This document shows positions 8,097 through 60,259 of a stretch of 64,000 bases of DNA, one piece after another. A program made the translations under genes and the position numbers. Each line of letters starts with the position of its first letter. The stretch's first letter is position 1. The notes beneath the pieces were generated by a model. That model searched no databases and was not told where the DNA came from. It worked only from the letters and a program-made list of their open reading frames with translations. Source of the DNA: an uncultured Spirochaetota bacterium (GTDB taxonomy: Bacteria > Spirochaetota > Spirochaetia > SZUA-6 > CAVTHK01); assembly GCA_963734495.1 (NCBI GenBank), contig CAVTHK010000002.1:64001-128000 (forward strand). Reading direction: 5' to 3'.

Positions 8097-9615
8097 ATGA
8101 CCCTGCCTGCTCTCCGCGGAGCGATCGGCTCCGACCCGTCGCTCATCGAACGCTGCAGCCGCGACATGAGCCGCTACCGCGTGCGGCCTCGCCTGGTCGC
8201 CTCCCCCGCGGACGAGGGGGACGTGCTGCGCCTCCTCGCCTACGCGGCGGAGGAGCGCGTGCCGGTGACCTGCCGCGGCGCCGGCTCGAACCTGTCGGGG
8301 TCCGCGGTCGGCCCCGGCATGGTGATGCTGACCGATCGCATGAGCGGCCTGCTGGCGATCGGCGCGAGCAGCGCGACCGCGCAGCCCGGCATCAAGTACG
8401 AGCAGCTCAACCGCCTCGCCGCGGCCAAAGGCCTCGCGCTTCGCTACGACGTGAGCTCGGGGCACTTTTCGACGATCGGCGGCAACATCTCGACCAAAGC
8501 GGGCGGCCTGCGCAGCGTCCGCTACGGGAACGTGGCGCGCTGGGTCCTCGGCGTCCGCTTCGTCTCGCCGGAGCTCGGCGTCGTGGACACGCGCGTTGGG
8601 GTCCCCGCGCCCCTGGCCGCCGCCCTGCAGGCGCTGCGCTCCGATCTCCTGGCCGACGCAGCCGGCGCGGACCGCGCTGGCGCGCCGCGGCTCGCTCAAG
8701 ACGGCAAGCGGCTACAACCTGCGCGGGCTGGTCGACGCCGCAACTCCCGAAGCCATGGTCGCGCAGCTGATGGTCGGCTCGGTGGGGACGCTGGGCGTGC
8801 TCACCGAGGTCGAGGTCGCGCTCCTCCCCGCGCCGCGCGCTCAGATCCTCCTCGCCGCGTTCTTCCAGCGGCTCGAGGACGCCTGCGGCCTGGCGGCCGA
8901 GCTCGCCGCGACGGGGCCCTCCGCGCTCGAGGCGATGGACGACGAAGGGACCCGGCTGCTCCTGGCCCTGGCGCCCGCCGGCGATCTGCCGGCGGCCGCC
9001 GATGCGGGCGCGGTCCTCCTGGTGGAGCACGAGGAGTCGGCCGCAGGATCGCCCGGCGCGGTCCCACCGGATGCCGAGGCTGCGCTGCGCATCCTCAACG
9101 CGCGCGCGCTTGCCGTCTGGCGGGTGCCGCCGTCCGCGGCCGAATCCGTCTGGAACGTGCGCTGGTCCATGCTCACCTCGATCCGCCGGGCGCACGAAAC
9201 CGACGACCGGCGCTTCCTCTCGTTCGTCGACGACCTCGCCGTTCCCATCGGGGCGCTCGGGTCCTTCCTCGAGGAGGTCACGAGGATCTTTGAGGCTGAA
9301 GGTATGCGCTCGGTCATCTACGGCCATCTCGGCGAGGGCAACCTTCACATGAGACCTCTGATCGAGAGGCAGGGCTGGCGCGAACGGGTCCACCGCGTGG
9401 CCGACCGCTGCTTCGAGGCCGCGCTCCGGCGGGGCGGCACGCTCACCGCCGAGCACGGCTCCGGCCGCAACCGCGCGCCCTTTCTGGCCCGCGAGTGGGG
9501 GGAGCGGCTGTACGGCTACTTCGGGAGGGTCAAGACGATCTTCGACCCCGGCGACCTGCTGAACCCGGGGGTCATGTTCTCGGATCGCGACTTCACGGAG
9601 GAGCTGGAGTTCTGA
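8097..9615 (+). CDS. FAD-binding oxidoreductase (GlcD/D-lactate dehydrogenase-like), frameshifted near 8660
   Basis: N-terminal RGAGSNLSG and TIGGNISTKAGG in one frame; KTASGYNL, GSVGTLG, GHLGEGNLH, TAEHGSG and FDPGDLLNPG in another. Confidence 0.85.
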
Positions 9616-11867: not shown

Positions 11868-12782
11868 ATGCCGGCACGATCCAGCTGGAAAGGATTCCTC
11901 AAGCTCAGCCTGGTCTCGGTCCCGGTCAAGGCTTACACCGCCAACGCCACCGGAAGCGAGATCACGCTGCACCAGCTTCACTCCAAGTCCCACACCCGGA
12001 TCCAGTACAAGAAGGTCGCGCCCGGGGTGGGGGAGGTGGGCGCCGAGGAGATCGTCAAGGGCTACGAGTACGCCAAGGGCCAGTACGTGGTCATCGACGA
12101 CGACGAGCTCGACAAGCTGCGCACGGAGAGCGACAAGTCCGTGCGCATCGACGGGTTCATCAAGCCGCAGCAGGTCGACGGCATCTACTACGGGGGCCGC
12201 ACCTACTACCTCACGCCGGACGGGGCGGTGGGGCAGAAGCCCTACACGCTCCTGCTGCGGAGCATGGAGGCCAACGGGGTCTGCGCGATCGCCGAAGTCG
12301 TGATCTCCCAGAGGGAGCAGGTGGTGCTGCTGCGGCCGGTGGACGGCGTGCTCGCCATGACGGTGCTGAACCGGCACGACCAGGTCAAGCTGGCGTCGGC
12401 CTTTAAGGATGAGATCCAGGAGAGCCCCGCCACCGAAGCCGAAGTGGCGCTCACAAACACGCTCATCAACGCTTCGATGATCCAGAGCTTCGACTTCGCG
12501 CGCTATCGCGACACCTACAAGGACAAGCTCACCAAGCTGATCCAGCTCAAGGTCGAAGGGCAGGAGATCGTGCAGGTGCACGATCCGGAGGAGCCCAAGA
12601 TCATCAACCTCATGGAGGCGCTCAAGCGCAGCGTCGCGGAGGCGCAGGCCGCGGGCGCGGCCCGGGAGGCCGGAGGCAACGGCAGCTCGAGCGAGGCGGA
12701 CAAGGCCGACCTCAAGCAGGCGCCCAGCGCAAAGGCGCGGAAGACCACGCAGACCACGCAGAAGAAGAGGAAAGTTGGATAG
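11868..12782 (+). CDS. ku: NHEJ DNA-end-binding protein Ku
   Basis: RSSWKGFLKLSLVSVPVKAY, EIVKGYEY, YRDTYKDKL, INLMEALKRSV and a basic C-terminal tail. Confidence 0.97.
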   Translation: MPARSSWKGFLKLSLVSVPVKAYTANATGSEITLHQLHSKSHTRIQYKKVAPGVGEVGAEEIVKGYEYAKGQYVVIDDDELDKLRTESDKSVRIDGFIKPQQVDGIYYGGRTYYLTPDGAVGQKPYTLLLRSMEANGVCAIAEVVISQREQVVLLRPVDGVLAMTVLNRHDQVKLASAFKDEIQESPATEAEVALTNTLINASMIQSFDFARYRDTYKDKLTKLIQLKVEGQEIVQVHDPEEPKIINLMEALKRSVAEAQAAGAAREAGGNGSSSEADKADLKQAPSAKARKTTQTTQKKRKVG

Positions 12783-13737
12783 AGCAGGCGGCGACCGGCT
12801 CCCGCGGTTCATCCCGCCGATGCTCGCCGTCCTCGGCGAGCCGTTCGATTCCGAGGAGCACCTGTACGAGGTCAAGTGGGACGGCATTCGCGCGCTCGCC
12901 CTGGTCGAGCGCGGCGGGCTGCGCCTGCTCAGCCGAAACGAGCAGCCCCTCGCGTCCCGCTACCCGGAGCTGGCGGAGCTGTCCGCGCTCCGCCCCGGGG
13001 TGGCGCTCGACGGCGAGATCGTGGCGCTCCGCGACGGCAAGCCCGACTTCAACGCGGTCCTGCGGCGCGGGGGCCTGGGCAGGGGCAAGCGATGGGGTCC
13101 GCCCGAGTCGTCCGGCCGGGATGCGGCCGGCGACGCCCCGGTGACGTACGTAGCCTTCGACATCCTCTACAAGGACCACGGGACGCTGATGCCGCTCCCG
13201 CTCGAGGAGCGGCGCAAGCACCTCGAGGAGCTGCTCGCGCCCGCGATCTCGCCGCGGCTCGTGCTCTCGGAGGGCGTGCGCGGGGCCGGGACCGCGCTCT
13301 ACCGCGAGGTCTGTGAAAAAGGGCTCGAAGGCGTCGTCGCCAAACGGCTTGCGAGCGCCTACGCGCCGGGCAAACGCAACGGCGCCTGGGTCAAGATCAA
13401 GCGCCGCCTCCGCGCGGTCTGCCTGGTCATCGGGTTCCTGGAGAAAGAAGGCCGCGACTTCCAGTGCCTCCTGGTGGCCACGAACCAGGTCCCGGGCGCC
13501 GATCCCGAGCCCGGCCCGCTGCGTTACGTGGGCCGGGTGGGCGGAGGGTTCAGCGAGGCCGTGCGGCGGCGGGTCAACGAGCTGATCTGGCCGCGGATCG
13601 TCCGCTCGCCGATCGTCCCCTGCCCCGAGCGGGGCGTGTGGATTGAAGCGGCCCTGTTTTGTACTGTAAGCTTCGCCGAGCTCACCGAGGCCGGCCTGCT
13701 GCGGGCCCCGGTGTTCGAAGGACTGGTCGAAGCGTAA
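12775..13737 (+). CDS. Stand-alone ATP-dependent DNA ligase (adenylation domain + OB fold; LigD-LIG/LigC-like)
   Basis: Intact motifs EVKWDGIR, LDGEIV, YVAFDIL, GLEGVVAKR and WVKIK; OB fold YVGRVGGGFS..LRAPVFEGL; overlaps the ku stop codon. Confidence 0.92.
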   Translation: MDRAGGDRLPRFIPPMLAVLGEPFDSEEHLYEVKWDGIRALALVERGGLRLLSRNEQPLASRYPELAELSALRPGVALDGEIVALRDGKPDFNAVLRRGGLGRGKRWGPPESSGRDAAGDAPVTYVAFDILYKDHGTLMPLPLEERRKHLEELLAPAISPRLVLSEGVRGAGTALYREVCEKGLEGVVAKRLASAYAPGKRNGAWVKIKRRLRAVCLVIGFLEKEGRDFQCLLVATNQVPGADPEPGPLRYVGRVGGGFSEAVRRRVNELIWPRIVRSPIVPCPERGVWIEAALFCTVSFAELTEAGLLRAPVFEGLVEA

Positions 13738-13740
13738 GCG

Positions 13741-14908
13741 ATGGAGGGCAACGATTCTCTTGCCGGCCGCGAGCTGGCGTTCACGGGTCGCCTCGTGTCC
13801 ATGACCCGGGCGGAGGCGATCGAGCGGCTCGCGCGAGCGGGGGCCCGGTGCGTCCGGACGCCCACCGAGTCGACCGACCTGCTGGTCGCCGGTCAGGCGA
13901 GGGGGCCGCTCCTCGAGGACGGCGGCCTCGCGGGCAACCTGGCCCGCTTCCGCGAGCTCAAGGAAGACGGAGCTTCGATCCGGCTCATCGAGGAGACCGA
14001 GCTCCTGCGGCTGCTCGGCGTCCCGGAGGAGATCGAGGACTTCACCCGGCTCTACACCACTGTGCAGGTCAGCCGCATCGTCGACGCGCCGCTCTCCGAA
14101 GTGCGCGGGTGGCTGCGCAACGGCCTGATCCAGCCCGCCCGCGTAGCCAAGCGCCTCGCGTGGTTCGAGTTCCGCGACATCGTCCACGCCCGCTCGCTCA
14201 GCCGCCTCGCGGCGTCGGGGATCCCGGCCGCGCGCATCCGGCGCAGCCTGGGCGAGATCTCGCGGTGGCTTCCCGACGCGGACCGGATGATCGGCCGCAT
14301 CGAGGCCTACGACCGGCGGCTGCGGGTGCGCCTGCAGGGCGGGGGCTGGGCGGAGCCGAGCGGCCAGATGCTGCTGGATTTCGCGGCCGAGCGCGGCGGC
14401 GAATCGCGCGTGGCCGTTTTCCCGCGCGGGCAACGCGGAAGCGCGGCTCGACACCGCGCCCTGGTTCTACCAGGGCGTCGCAGCCGAGGAGCGCGGCGAC
14501 CTGGAGGGCGCGGCCGAAGCGTACCGGCGCGCCGCCGGCGCCGTCCCGGAGCCCGAGACGTGCTTCAACCTCGGCAACGTTCTCTACGACCTCGGCCGCG
14601 AGGTCGAGGCCGCCGAGCGGTACCTGCAGGCGATCGAAGCGGACCGCGACTTCGCCGAGGCCTGGAACAACCTCGGCAACTCGATGGCCGCCCTGGGAAA
14701 GCTGGAGGACGCGGTGCACGCCTACGAGACGGCGCTGGCGCTCGAGCCCGCGTATGCGGACGCGCACTGCAACCTCGCGGCCGTGCTGGAGCGGCTCGGC
14801 CGGCCGGCGCAGGCGCTCGAGCACAGGGCCTCTTGCGAGAAAGCCTACCCGACGCGGCGGCACCTCGAGCTGCTGCACGGCGGAGCTGCGGACGAGGGCG
14901 AGGAGTAG
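13741..14908 (+). CDS. BRCT + MerR-type HTH + TPR protein; frameshift near 14430
   Basis: LAGRELAFTGRLVSMTRAEA..TDLLVAG (LigA-type BRCT); YTTVQVSRIV..VRGWLRNGLIQP..FEFRDI (MerR HTH); about 4 TPRs in the shifted frame (FNLGNVLYDLG, AEAWNNLG, ADAHCNLA). Confidence 0.85.
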
Positions 14909-14926
14909 GCGGCTCTTCCGGGGCGG

Positions 14927-16943
14927 CTACAGGTACCTGCTCAGCGCCGCAATGGCGGGCGCAAGGTCCTGCGGCTTCGAGAGCGAGGGCCGGAACAGGT
15001 CGCCCGTGCGCTCGACGCGGGCGGGCGCGTTGGCGAGCGTGAAGTCCGCGACGCGGAAGTCGCTTTCGAGCTCGTCCCACTGCAGCGGCATCGAGACGGA
15101 GGCTGCTTCCACCGGGCGCACCACGTAAGGCGGCACGACGGTCTGCTCCCGCCTGTTCTGCAGGAAATCGACGTAGACCTTGCCCTCGCGCCGGCCGATC
15201 ACGCGCTCGACCGTGGCGATGTCGCCGTGGTCGCGCACCAGCAGGCGCGCGACGGCTTCCGAGAACATGCGGCTCTGCTCGTACGTGTAGCCCGGCGCGA
15301 GCGGGATGAACACGTGAAGCCCCGATGAGCCCGACGTCTTCAGGAACGGCTCCAGCCCGAGCCCGCGCAGAAGCTTGCCCGCCTCCCGCGCGATCTTGAT
15401 CACGCTCGAAAAGGGAGCGTCCTTGGGGTCGAGGTCGAGGACGGCCCAGTCGGGCGAGTCGAGGCTTCCGCGACGGGAAAACCAGGGGTGAAGGTCGATG
15501 CTCCCCAGGTTGATCAGGTGCAGCAGGGTGCGCCGGTCGTTGCAGACGATGTAGCGCGCCGGCTCCTCTCCCTCGCGGGCCACGTCGGCCGTCTCGACCC
15601 AGTCGGGCAGGCCGTCGGGGAGCGCCTTCTGATAGAAGGACTTGCCGCGGATCCCGTCGGGCCAGCGGTACATGTGCAGCGGCCGCTCCCGCAGGTACGG
15701 CAGGATGTGGTCGGCGATCCGGTCGTAGTACGCGTACAGGTCCGCCTTGGTGTAGCCCTGCTCCGGCCAGTACACCTTTCGGGGATTCGTGAGGGGCGAC
15801 GGCGCGGGCGCTGCCGCCGCGCGGAGCGCGGCCTTTGTCCGCTTGCGTCCCGTGACGGCGATGAGCCGCCAGTCTTCGGAGCGTCCCGCGCGATACGGGC
15901 TTTCGGCGCGCTTGGCGACGATCGCCGGCAGCCCCGCTCCTGCGGCCGCTTCGGCGAGCTCCGCCCCTCGCTCGGCAATCGGGTCGACCGGCAGCACGTG
16001 AGGCAGCTCCGGAAGCAGGTTGCGCAGGGCGGCCTTTCGCTCCCGCAGCGGCAGCCCGCGCAGGTCCCACTCCTCGGCGTAGAGCACGTCGTAGAGGTAG
16101 AGCAGGATGCCCTGCCCGTCGCCCGCGAGCCTGGCGTCGAGGGCCTCGCGGGAGGGGCGGCCTTGGGCATCGAGGGCGACGAGGACGCCGTCGAGGAGCG
16201 CCGTCTCGGCCCGGACGGACTCGAGCTCCTTGACGATGCGCGGCAGGAGCGGCGCCAGGTCCTCCTTGTCCGCGCTGAGGCTCGGCGCTCGACCCTTCGA
16301 TCGCCGCGAGCACCCTCCTCCCGACAAAGCCGGGCTCGAACATCCAGGCGGGGTCGGAGAAGGGCTCGAAGCCCTCCGCCGGCTCCATCAAGCCGGGCTT
16401 GCGGGGGGCCGGCGCGCGCCGCGCCCGCGAGAGGTCGACGCCGGCGAACAGGTCGCTGCCCGAGCCCGCGTAGCGGTCGCGCGCCTTGAAGAGCAGCCAG
16501 TCCCGGCCGCCTTCGCGCTTCGTCTGCACGAGGTGCCACTCCCCGCGCAGCCGGCGGCCCTTGAGCACGAGCTTGAGCTCCCCTTCGGCAAGGGCCTGGG
16601 TGACGTCCTTGCTCCGGAGCAGCTCGTAGTCCCCCGTGTCCCAGATCTGCATGGTACCCGCGCCGTACTCGCCCGTGGGGATGACGCCGGAGAAGGTCTC
16701 GTACTCGAGGGGGTGGTCTTCGGTGCGGACCGCGAGCCGCTTGTCCGCGGGGTCGTACGAGAAGCCTTTGGGCACCGCGAACGAGGCGAGGGCTTCGCCC
16801 GCCACGAAGCGGAAATCGTAGTGAAGCCGGCGCGCCTCGTGGCGGTGCACGACGAAGACCGGCCGGAGCCGCTGCTCCGCGGCCGGCTCCGGCTCGGGCG
16901 TCCTCGAGAAATCGCGCTTGCGTTTGTATTCCGCGGTCCCCAT
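14927..16943 (-). CDS. ligD: LigD-like protein: phosphoesterase + inactivated ligase domain + primase-polymerase; frameshift near 16280
   Basis: PE: YKRKRDF, HEARRLHYDFR, EDHPLEY, GEYGAG. POL: LTNPRKVYWP, FYQK, DLDP, KTSGSSGLHV, YVDFLQN. Middle domain has EPGFVGRR in place of ExKxDGxR. Confidence 0.9.
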
Positions 16944-59402: not shown

Positions 59403-60259
59403 TGGATGCGCGGGGGCCTCACCGCCGAACGACAGCGCGGCGCGCCGCGGGGCGCGCGGTTTCTCACATCGTGCTCATCGCGGCGAGCGTGGCCATCGGG
59501 CTGCCCTTTGTCTGGATGGTCACGACGGCGTTCAAGGGGCCGACCGAGGTCTACATCTTTCCTCCGATCTGGTGGCCGGCCGAGCCGCGCCTGGAGAACT
59601 TTGTCGAAGCCTGGGGGATCGCCCCCTTCGGCCGCTTCTACGTCAACAGCATCATCACGACCGGGGCGGGCGTCGTGCTCGAGGTGCTCATCGCGGCGCT
59701 GTCGGCGTACGCCTTTGCCCGCATCCCGTTCCGGTTCCGCGACCAGCTGTTCGTCATCATGCTCGCGGCCCTGATGATCCCCGGCCAGGTGGCGCTGATC
59801 CCGAACTACGTGGTGCTCAAGCACCTGGGGTGGATCAACACGTACGCCGGCATCGTCGTCCCGCACGTCTCGAGCGTGTTCGGGGCCTTTCTGCTGCGGC
59901 AGGCGATCCTCTCGATGCCCGCGTCGCTGTTCGACGCGGCCGAGATCGACGGGCTCGGGCACCTGCGGTCGATGCTGAGCGTCGCCCTGCCGCTGGCGCG
60001 GCCGGTCGTGGCCACGCTCTCGCTCTACCTCTTTATTTCCAAGTGGAACAGCTACCTCTGGCCGCTCATCGTGACGAACACGGAGAGCATGCGCACGCTG
60101 CCCGTCGGGCTGTCGATGGTCGAGAAGGCCGAGTACATGATCGGGCCGGAGCACCTGATGGCCGCGTCGCTGTTCGTGCTCGTGCCGGTGCTGGTCGTGT
60201 TCTTCGCGGCGCAGAAGCAGCTGATCGAAGGGATTGCGGCAGGCGCGATCAAGGGCTGA
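59402..60259 (+). CDS. CUT1 ABC permease (UgpE-like)
   Basis: AYAFAR, FDAAEIDG and WNSYLWPL. Confidence 0.92.
   Translation: MDARGPHRRTTARRAAGRAVSHIVLIAASVAIGLPFVWMVTTAFKGPTEVYIFPPIWWPAEPRLENFVEAWGIAPFGRFYVNSIITTGAGVVLEVLIAALSAYAFARIPFRFRDQLFVIMLAALMIPGQVALIPNYVVLKHLGWINTYAGIVVPHVSSVFGAFLLRQAILSMPASLFDAAEIDGLGHLRSMLSVALPLARPVVATLSLYLFISKWNSYLWPLIVTNTESMRTLPVGLSMVEKAEYMIGPEHLMAASLFVLVPVLVVFFAAQKQLIEGIAAGAIKG

Follow-up and report, generated by a model that had tools for sequence, protein, structure and literature searches.

Why would a DNA repair protein keep, between two intact catalytic domains, a third domain that has lost the residues for its own reaction? The question is raised by a LigD-like gene on the minus strand of a 64,000-nucleotide stretch of DNA from an uncultured Spirochaetota bacterium (assembly GCA_963734495.1, contig CAVTHK010000002.1, positions 64,001 to 128,000), referred to here as the window. 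In order, the gene encodes a 3'-phosphoesterase (PE) domain, a nucleotidyltransferase (NTase) domain of the DNA ligase type in which the catalytic residues are replaced, here called the pseudo-ligase domain, and a primase-polymerase (POL) domain. We consider it likely that Ku-dependent end joining is here divided between separate proteins, of which this one processes the ends and retains the dead ligase domain, and that sealing is provided in trans.

Loss of the catalytic motifs and of the OB fold

The two outer domains are those of an ordinary LigD. The window's gene starts in the same way (MGTAEYKRK) as that of an intact 672-residue relative, P0001, whose PE domain exceeds the cut-off of the NCBIfam model (TIGR02777, PF13298; 191 against 144 bits). 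PE aligns with the corresponding domain of Pseudomonas aeruginosa LigD (PDB 2lj6, E = 2.3e-40) and is identical to it at the catalytic residues His42, His48, Asp50, Arg52, His84 and Tyr88, the roles of which are as given in the accessible text of PMC8656161. POL passes the ligD_pol model (TIGR02778, PF21686; 248 bits, cut-off 214.7), and its DxD, SGxxGLH and third-Asp segments agree with those of solved polymerases of non-homologous end joining (NHEJ) (PDB 5dmu, E = 1.7e-50). The view of the initial annotation, made from the DNA alone, that PE and POL have kept their catalytic residues is thus borne out by both alignments.

The domain between them, of about 180 residues, barely reaches the Pfam threshold for DNA_ligase_A_M (PF01068; 27.4 bits, cut-off 26.2), its relatives scoring 29–50 bits. 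It does not reach that of the NCBIfam model NHEJ_ligase_lig (TIGR02779; 80.9 bits in the window and 85.3 bits in P0001, cut-off 227.75), of which only the first half is matched (positions 39–180 of 302 in the window, 9–180 across the window and P0001). The models of whole LigD also fail (TIGR02776, 342–343 bits against 373.2; NF004628, 513 bits against 895 for P0001). By phmmer, the closest match of the domain in the PDB is the ligase domain of Mycobacterium tuberculosis LigD (E = 5.7e-5). The Pfam scan gave no match to DNA_ligase_A_C (PF04679), the oligonucleotide/oligosaccharide-binding (OB) domain, in the window's gene, and in the translation POL starts (TNPRKVYW) straight after a linker of only 21 residues, an absence that the initial annotation had already remarked.

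The initial annotation had also read degenerate forms of ligase motifs I, III, IV and V, and all four were reproduced on the minus strand at the positions it gave (Table 1). The stand-alone ligase encoded near by and 15 database ligases, examined as a control, all keep the Lys and Asp of motif I, the Glu of motif III, the Glu-Gly of motif IV and the first Lys of motif V, and 13 of the 16 have the second motif V Lys. Because these residues are kept in the neighbouring and the database ligases, the losses in the pseudo-ligase domain are not due to chance.

Distribution and conservation of the family

The degenerate state extends well beyond the window. In a set of 95 sequences (82 metagenome proteins from a word-based search, the window's LigD-like protein and its stand-alone ligase, and 11 relatives) the motif I Lys is gone in 74, present in 16 and partial in five. 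Its place in the 74 is taken by Ala (26), Glu (23), Arg (6), Ser (5), Leu (4), Gly (3), Val (2), Gln (2), Asp (2) or His (1), and the motif III Glu is replaced by Val in 57 of them and by Ile in 14. The Glu and Arg of motif I are kept in all 74, and its Gly and the motif IV Lys in 73 each. The 16 sequences with the Lys are the stand-alone ligase of the window and the 15 database ligases, ordinary enzymes that keep LDGE and EG; close relatives with an intact KxDG, which the initial annotation named as evidence against its own interpretation, do not appear in the set.

The degenerate motifs are common to all 11 intact relatives, which belong to families f2 and f7 and have no OB fold. Each of ten Lys-less members examined in the Pfam scan consists of PE, a weak DNA_ligase_A_M match and POL, and none of the ten has an OB domain. 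A profile search of 1.84 billion representatives returned, among its best 150 clusters, 25 without the Lys, 118 with it and seven in which it is partial. At the level of the genome, 80 loci divide into 41 of the pseudo type and 39 with an ordinary LigD. The pseudo-type loci come from metagenome-assembled genomes (MAGs) labelled Spirochaetia/Spirochaetota, Acidobacteriota and Planctomycetota, and no cultured organism is among those listed. We take the dead domain to be an old, conserved trait of the family.

Some OB-less proteins keep motifs closer to those of ligases, among them two of the ten just mentioned, in which Gln or Arg stands for the motif I Lys. P0104 (EVQWDG and LDGE) and P0195 (EPRYDG and VDGE) score 67–75 bits for DNA_ligase_A_M, and two loci from MAGs labelled Acidobacteriota / Vicinamibacteria (L054 and L055) have a Lys at motif I with neither the Asp nor the motif III Glu. 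These four may be less degenerate or independent branches.

The pseudo-ligase domain is under purifying selection. The median ratio of non-synonymous to synonymous substitution (dN/dS), calculated by the method of Nei and Gojobori (NG86) from 26 close pairs among 36 genes, is 0.15 for PE, 0.25 (range 0.09–0.38) for the pseudo-ligase domain and 0.10 for POL, figures that come from a crude method and from pairs that are not independent, with dS (medians 0.37–0.49) near saturation in genes so rich in G+C at the third codon position (GC3). Distant pairs were excluded, as NG86 dS reaches a plateau at ~0.6–0.8 and the ratio is inflated for all domains, POL included. Neutral evolution, the other observation that would have told against the initial annotation, is thus not what the median of 0.25 indicates.

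In a tree of 51 NTase domains, the 25 pseudo-domains form one clade (support of 99 in the Shimodaira–Hasegawa-like approximate likelihood ratio test, on a long stem of 0.78) inside the LigD-type radiation, and the 11 stand-alone ligases form a separate clade (support 99). The two clades are alike in internal shape, and the terminal branches of the pseudo-domains are as short as those of the stand-alone ligases from the same genomes. In a comparison of alignment columns, nine positions that are conserved in 88–100% of 25 active LigD-type NTase domains proved to be lost from the 25 pseudo-domains. They comprise the motif I Lys and Asp, the motif Ia Arg, the motif III Glu, an aromatic residue, the motif IV Glu-Gly and, around motif V, an Arg and two Lys. 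A further 15 positions are conserved in both classes, and 14 in the pseudo-domains only, several of them charged (R244, D258, R295, K303, R307 and D320 in the numbering of P0001). Across the 54 proteins of alignment A1, 10 positions of the domain are invariant and 29 nearly so. Loss of catalytic residues combined with purifying selection is the mark of a pseudoenzyme, and with nine active-conserved positions and the OB fold gone from a domain that selection maintains, the pseudo-ligase domain would be one, much as the initial annotation had proposed.

In the pairs of different species for which it was calculated in f2, identity in the domain is 57–62%, rising to 75% in the closest pair (G038 and G028); the window's domain shares 44% with that of an f7 genome. 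Three f7 relatives (L016 in G007, L013 in G026 and L014 in G020) have Ala/Gly-rich low-complexity inserts between motifs III and IIIa, by which the domain is up to ~80 residues longer than in their neighbours; the loop at this point tolerates insertions.

One could suppose that the domain is a neutrally drifting relic that serves as a mere linker. It does evolve faster than PE and POL, and inserts of the size just described might be expected of a relic. The dN/dS range in the close pairs, the level of identity within f2 and between the window and f7, the invariant and nearly invariant positions, branches equal in length to those of the active ligase and a confidently predicted fold (below) all contradict the supposition, and we give it hardly any credence.

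The break in the reading frame

As assembled, the gene is not a single open reading frame (ORF). Motif I is read in the frame of PE and motifs III–V in the frame of POL, one base apart, and the phase of GC3 flips at ~16290–16315. The initial annotation, which placed the domain at 15850–16390, was right about the motifs and overlooked this one-base break near 16282–16296. Read through with one base fewer (PE as far as ...AAIE, then GRAPSLSADKEDL in the other frame), the gene gives 671 residues and one X placeholder, the length of P0001, which is 86% identical in the region. P0001 and all 11 relatives have the gene as a single ORF. A contig from sequencing run X3 (depth 3, from a related strain ~91% identical) is without a base at 16296. 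In every run, the share of the sampled words of 14000–16700 was 18% or less; the four runs that were assembled gave patchy cover, from related strains.

Frame changes are frequent throughout this genome (G000). A detector based on GC3 counted 439 without a stop genome-wide, or 8.2 per 100 kb, against three in 483 kb, or 0.6 per 100 kb, in 37 high-GC loci of other assemblies; one of its five calls in the window was false, 59416–59491 being a true gene boundary. Four genes in the 64 kb are broken, near 8640 (plus strand), 14400 (plus), 16290 (minus) and 38300 (minus). Besides the LigD-like gene they are an FAD oxidase, with FAD_binding_4 and FAD-oxidase_C in separate frames, an NAD epimerase and a gene with MerR and tetratricopeptide repeat (TPR) regions, and in all three the Pfam halves lie in different frames. 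At the break near 14400, contigs of related strains, again with patchy cover, differ from the window by +3 in run X4 and by −1 then +1 in X3.

Because of the genome-wide excess of frame changes, the single ORF in the 11 relatives and the other broken genes, the break near 16290 is most likely a sequencing or assembly indel and not a feature of the gene, and in this genome no gene should be called a pseudogene without support from the reads. A programmed frameshift is ruled out by the single ORF in 11 of 11 relatives and in the 54 proteins of alignment A1.

The alternative is that the gene is a real pseudogene here, with a genuine break in a locus that is decaying, perhaps throughout the genus. 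The break is after all present in the assembled sequence, and the PE frame stays free of stops to 14565. In a genome of the same genus (G001, L033 1609–5548) the LigD-like gene lies in at least four frames and the stand-alone ligase in two; there the MerR–TPR gene is intact, with both parts in one frame, and Ku is a single full-length match with an internal gap. G001 represents either another error-prone assembly or decay of the LigD-like and ligase genes in the genus. Decay accords poorly with a GC3 that holds at 0.92–0.96 across the frame of the pseudo-ligase and POL domains, with matches of PE and POL over the full length of their profiles, with the intact state of P0001 and with the related contig that is without a base at 16296, and the excess of frame changes takes in the FAD oxidase, the epimerase and the MerR–TPR gene as well. 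On balance, we regard a real pseudogene as quite improbable.

A probable ligase in trans

With the ligase domain of the LigD-like protein dead, sealing most likely falls to another ligase, the gene of which adjoins that of Ku. The start of this gene overlaps the stop of Ku. Its motifs are intact (KWDG, LDGE, EG and KIK, with the motif I Lys34 at 12874–12876), and it matches NHEJ_ligase_lig over the full length of the model at 217.7 bits, just under the cut-off. Ku together with a competent ATP-dependent ligase in the same genome or locus is the sign by which Ku-dependent NHEJ is recognised, and the window would by this token encode such a system.

The association is general. The LigD-like gene is present in 13 of 41 related genomes. 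In 12 of the 13, Ku adjoins a short ligase; the thirteenth genome is 88% complete and has its copy on a 3-kb contig. The remaining 28 genomes are without the LigD-like gene and without Ku as well. Of the 80 loci, 15 of the 41 pseudo-type and one of the 39 active-type have a stand-alone ligase in their ~7-kb flanks, Ku in the same flanks is found at 14 and 13, respectively, and in five of five complete genomes without a neighbouring ligase the Ku–ligase pair is present elsewhere, counts which overstate independence since the genomes are related to one another. The correlation that the initial annotation had proposed, between loss of motif I and a stand-alone ligase, therefore exists. The order Ku, ligase, MerR–TPR gene is found in all 11 loci fetched, and the LigD-like gene adjoins them in seven, as it does in the window's genome.

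The window's genome contains a single POL domain, and its ligase adenylation domains number three. One of these, away from the locus, is part of a longer ATP-dependent ligase (G000:C1:484596-485177, L001) with an N-terminal extension and intact motifs, scoring 172.8 bits for DNA_ligase_A_M; it is probably LigB/Lig1-like and unrelated to the LigD-like locus.

We propose that Ku would recruit both the LigD-like protein and the stand-alone ligase to a break. PE at the N terminus and POL at the C terminus, joined by a domain unable to adenylate or seal, would heal the ends, and the 320-residue ligase from the Ku operon would seal them. The pseudo-ligase domain would act as a folded, non-catalytic module that determines how PE and POL are spaced and arranged relative to each other and that most likely offers a surface for the docking of another protein. 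The domain is expected to be inactive in vitro, and we infer that the neighbouring ligase is the one that seals.

What might be docked is a separate matter. The LigD-like and ligase genes strictly co-occur and their trees match in shape, as might be expected if the pseudo-ligase domain docked the stand-alone ligase rather than Ku, a single complex replacing the covalent fusion of canonical LigD. The 14 pseudo-only positions, many of them charged, point the same way, as does the acidic character of the domain where active NTase domains are basic: its net charge is −7 in the window, against medians of −2 for pseudo-domains, +2 for stand-alone ligases and +6 for active domains from the database. 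(The acidic charge also argues, weakly, against docking to DNA.) The literature consulted held no precedent for NTase–NTase or NTase–OB heterodimers in LigD, however, and Ku could recruit the two proteins to a DNA end by itself. We rate docking to the ligase instead of Ku as unlikely.

Fold and possible role of the pseudo-ligase domain

In the AlphaFold2 model of P0001, the mean confidence (predicted local distance difference test, pLDDT) is 87.9 and in the pseudo-ligase region 87–96; the linker (residues 366–379) falls below 50 and is disordered. A model of the domain alone, from a genome whose copy is 60% identical to that of the window (G009), gave a pLDDT of 91.5 and a predicted template modelling score (pTM) of 0.86. 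The top match of this model in Foldseek is the M. tuberculosis LigD ligase (1vs0_B; E = 3.2e-13, template modelling scores of 0.76 by query (TMq) and 0.47 by target (TMt), 25% identity), and all of the matches listed are ATP-dependent DNA ligases (TMq 0.68–0.86). The TMt values of 0.47–0.50 mean that only the NTase half is matched. The models give us confidence that the domain still folds as a ligase NTase.

With such a fold, the domain might bind an adenine nucleotide (ATP, AMP or NAD) non-covalently and so serve PE or POL as a sensor or an allosteric switch; alternatively, a relocated Lys might carry out some nucleotidyl transfer. Pocket positions are indeed invariant in the family, namely the Glu and Arg of motif I, the Asp of motif IIIa with its aromatic neighbour and the Lys of motif IV; in ligases, such pocket residues contact the adenine and ribose. 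For part of them these contacts are given in the accessible text of PMC8656161. Two lysines, K303 and K344, are invariant as well. The positions for phosphate and metal, on the other hand, are all gone (the Lys and Asp of motif I, the Arg of motif Ia, the Glu of motifs III and IV, the Arg before motif V and the lysines of motif V), and ten different amino acids at the Lys position mean that nothing new has been selected there. The OB fold, which ligase adenylation needs, is absent, and the positions conserved in both classes may simply belong to the core. Neither role seems probable to us.

A non-catalytic role as such is well supported. This part of the earlier proposal stands, on the evidence of purifying selection, an old clade and a confident fold; the docking to Ku, DNA or a ligase that went with it remains conjecture. 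The ligase domain of LigD has been argued to contact Ku and to influence the polymerase, and in M. tuberculosis LigD, the residues D522, R567, K579 and L580 are reported to lie at the interface with the Ku C terminus and to affect polymerase activity (PMC13717202, from its accessible portion). These four residues align, at 25% identity, to the VRAE, EEW and RKAAL segments of the window, in which the pseudo-only conserved R244, R295, K303 and R307 cluster, and the C-terminal motif of Ku, EEPKIINLMEALKRSVAEAQ, is strongly conserved. For these reasons a surface facing Ku is tentatively favoured, and by analogy with the Ku-contacting surface of M. tuberculosis LigD the docking site might be the helix LPLRERKAALRNLL and its surroundings. 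A predicted complex of the domain (P0001 186–365) with the C-terminal region of the window's Ku (212–303), run without controls, scored 0.01 against a mark of 0.32.

More speculatively, the domain could be a dedicated adaptor whose pseudo-specific charged surface (R244, D258, R295, K303, R307 and D320) binds either the Ku C-terminal motif or the stand-alone ligase. We put this forward as a tentative possibility. Such an adaptor would pass processed ends directly to the sealing enzyme. In it, the non-catalytic, regulatory role that the LigD ligase domain has long been suspected to have would be naturally uncoupled from the chemistry of that domain, a state conserved in MAGs that bear the labels of at least three phyla.

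Several points weigh against an end-processing subunit with a dead, docking ligase domain, among them the limits of the dN/dS estimates given above. The evidence that the domain is dead is taken from its sequence. The domain keeps Glu and Arg in motif I, the aromatic residue in motif IIIa and Lys in motif IV, so that contacts with adenine and ribose, and hence nucleotide binding, are possible. The mapping of the Ku interface comes from an alignment of 25% identity to residues that derive in part from an AlphaFold3 model, according to the accessible portion of PMC13717202, and the helix containing RERK is partly conserved in active ligases (R302 and L306 in both classes), and so may be structural. 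The support for a missing base is one contig of depth 3 from a ~91% identical strain, and the state of G001, where the ligase is broken and the LigD-like gene is spread over four or more frames, could mean decay in the genus and not poor assembly.

Neighbouring genes

The third gene of the Ku–ligase operon encodes a BRCT-like N-terminal region followed by a MerR helix-turn-helix (HTH) domain and TPR repeats. The N-terminal region resembles the BRCT domain of Escherichia coli LigA (PDB 2owo, E = 2.2e-5) and scores 20 bits in Pfam against a BRCT cut-off of 21.3. The gene is convergent with the LigD-like gene, the two stops being 18 nucleotides apart. It is an intact single ORF in G009, follows the ligase in the loci of all 11 relatives and lies in the flanks of 18 of the 41 pseudo-type loci as against seven of the 39 active-type loci. 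The protein is a candidate for an accessory or regulatory factor of NHEJ, and the dead domain might interact with it. Positions of all of the features are collected in Table 1.

Family f7 genomes (L019–L024) have a second, stand-alone POL paralogue, 36–39% identical, which in two of the genomes (G014 and G037) lies within ~6 kb of another ligase adenylation domain. It may belong to a second system of the LigC/Prim-PolC kind, which the window's genome is without.

Table 1 Features of the LigD-like locus and of the Ku–ligase operon in the window
Feature	Position	Strand	Remarks
LigD-like gene (PE, pseudo-ligase, POL)	14927..16943	minus	two frames in the present assembly
Frame of PE	16943 to ~16296	minus	
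Frame of pseudo-ligase domain and POL	~16294 to TAG stop 14927-14929	minus	
One-base frame break between the two frames	16282..16296	minus	between motif I and motif III; exact base uncertain
PE domain	16527..16847	minus	Pfam LigD_N 132 bits, profile 1-106 of 107
Pseudo-ligase NTase domain, ~180 residues	15854..16394	minus	catalytic residues replaced; no OB fold after it
Motif I remnant EPGFVGRR	16314..16337	minus	Lys to Gly at 16329-16331, Asp to Val; Glu, Gly and Arg kept
Motif III remnant LDGVLV	16178..16195	minus	Glu to Val at 16184-16186
Motif IV remnant GLPAIVAKR	15908..15934	minus	Glu-Gly to Pro-Ala; Lys kept
Motif V remnant DWRLIAV	15854..15874	minus	both Lys gone; Trp kept
Linker, 21 residues, TGRKRTKAALRAAAAPAPSPL	15791..15853	minus	in the place of the ~100-residue OB domain of canonical LigD
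POL domain	14993..15751	minus	Pfam LigD_Prim-Pol 288 bits, profile 1-254 of 254
Ku	11868..12782	plus	Pfam Ku 150 bits; NCBIfam Ku_bact 256 bits, cut-off 150
Stand-alone LigD-type ligase (NTase and OB), 320 residues	12775..13737	plus	Pfam DNA_ligase_A_M 105 bits, DNA_ligase_A_C 48.5 bits
BRCT-like / MerR HTH / TPR gene, third of the Ku–ligase operon	13741..14908	plus	frame-broken near 14356-14446

Comparison with known systems

A search of the full-text literature brought up no account of a LigD in which the ligase module is dead and OB-less. Matches to "pseudoligase" were ubiquitin E3 proteins and were set aside. A survey of NHEJ architectures (10.1101/869602) classifies by domain matches and, in the portion accessible, does not mention the dead-ligase state. 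The combination of PE, pseudo-ligase domain and POL is thus, as far as we can see, a previously undescribed variant of LigD-based end joining. This matters for annotation, since sources name the family "bifunctional non-homologous end joining protein LigD" or "non-homologous end-joining DNA ligase" when its members almost certainly cannot ligate, and surveys scored by domain matches could count them as conventional LigD. It also bears on mechanism: the family would be a natural construct in which only the non-catalytic roles of the ligase domain can remain, so that these roles are directly testable. In evolutionary terms, it would be a clear case of sub-functionalisation, ligase activity having passed to a gene of its own within the Ku operon, whilst the internal copy has lost its OB fold and its chemistry and has yet long been kept in MAGs with the three phylum labels given above.

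The order of the domains is that of canonical LigD, as in P. aeruginosa LigD and Agrobacterium LigD1 and LigD2 (NF004628, TIGR02776). As in those proteins, PE and POL pass the NCBIfam cut-offs with catalytic residues kept, the gene is linked to Ku, and the pseudo-ligase domain is nested in the LigD-type NTase radiation. Unlike canonical LigD, the window's protein has a ligase module without catalytic residues or OB domain, fails the whole-protein models and has its ligase in a separate gene. The ligase domain of M. tuberculosis LigD (PDB 1vs0, 6nhx and 6nhz) is the closest solved structure both in sequence and in fold; it has the residues Lys481, Glu530, Glu613, Lys635 and Lys637 and the OB sub-domain, according to the accessible text of PMC8656161, all of which the pseudo-ligase domain is without.

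A LigD paralogue with a silent POL module has been reported (PMC1920237) and, as described in the part of that paper available, it is alike in having one silent module among three. There the ligase works; here it is the ligase module that is silent, a sub-domain has been lost with it and the state is conserved across many lineages. The inactive C-terminal polymerase module of Pol epsilon (PMC7308368, accessible portion) likewise appears to be a module retained in a replication and repair protein after loss of catalysis, but its fold and the organisms are unrelated and the likeness is one of analogy only.

Split NHEJ sets are a further point of comparison. In Streptomyces (LigDom, PolDom and NucDom) and in mycobacteria (LigC with Prim-PolC), sealing is carried out by a separate, minimal ligase of NTase and OB domains, and the processing enzymes are on polypeptides other than that of the ligase (PMC5124664 and PMC5663958, in their accessible parts), as would be the case here. 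Those sets are described as cleanly split, whereas in the window's system PE and POL are still joined through a folded remnant of the ligase, and the sealing enzyme would be the one encoded in the Ku operon.

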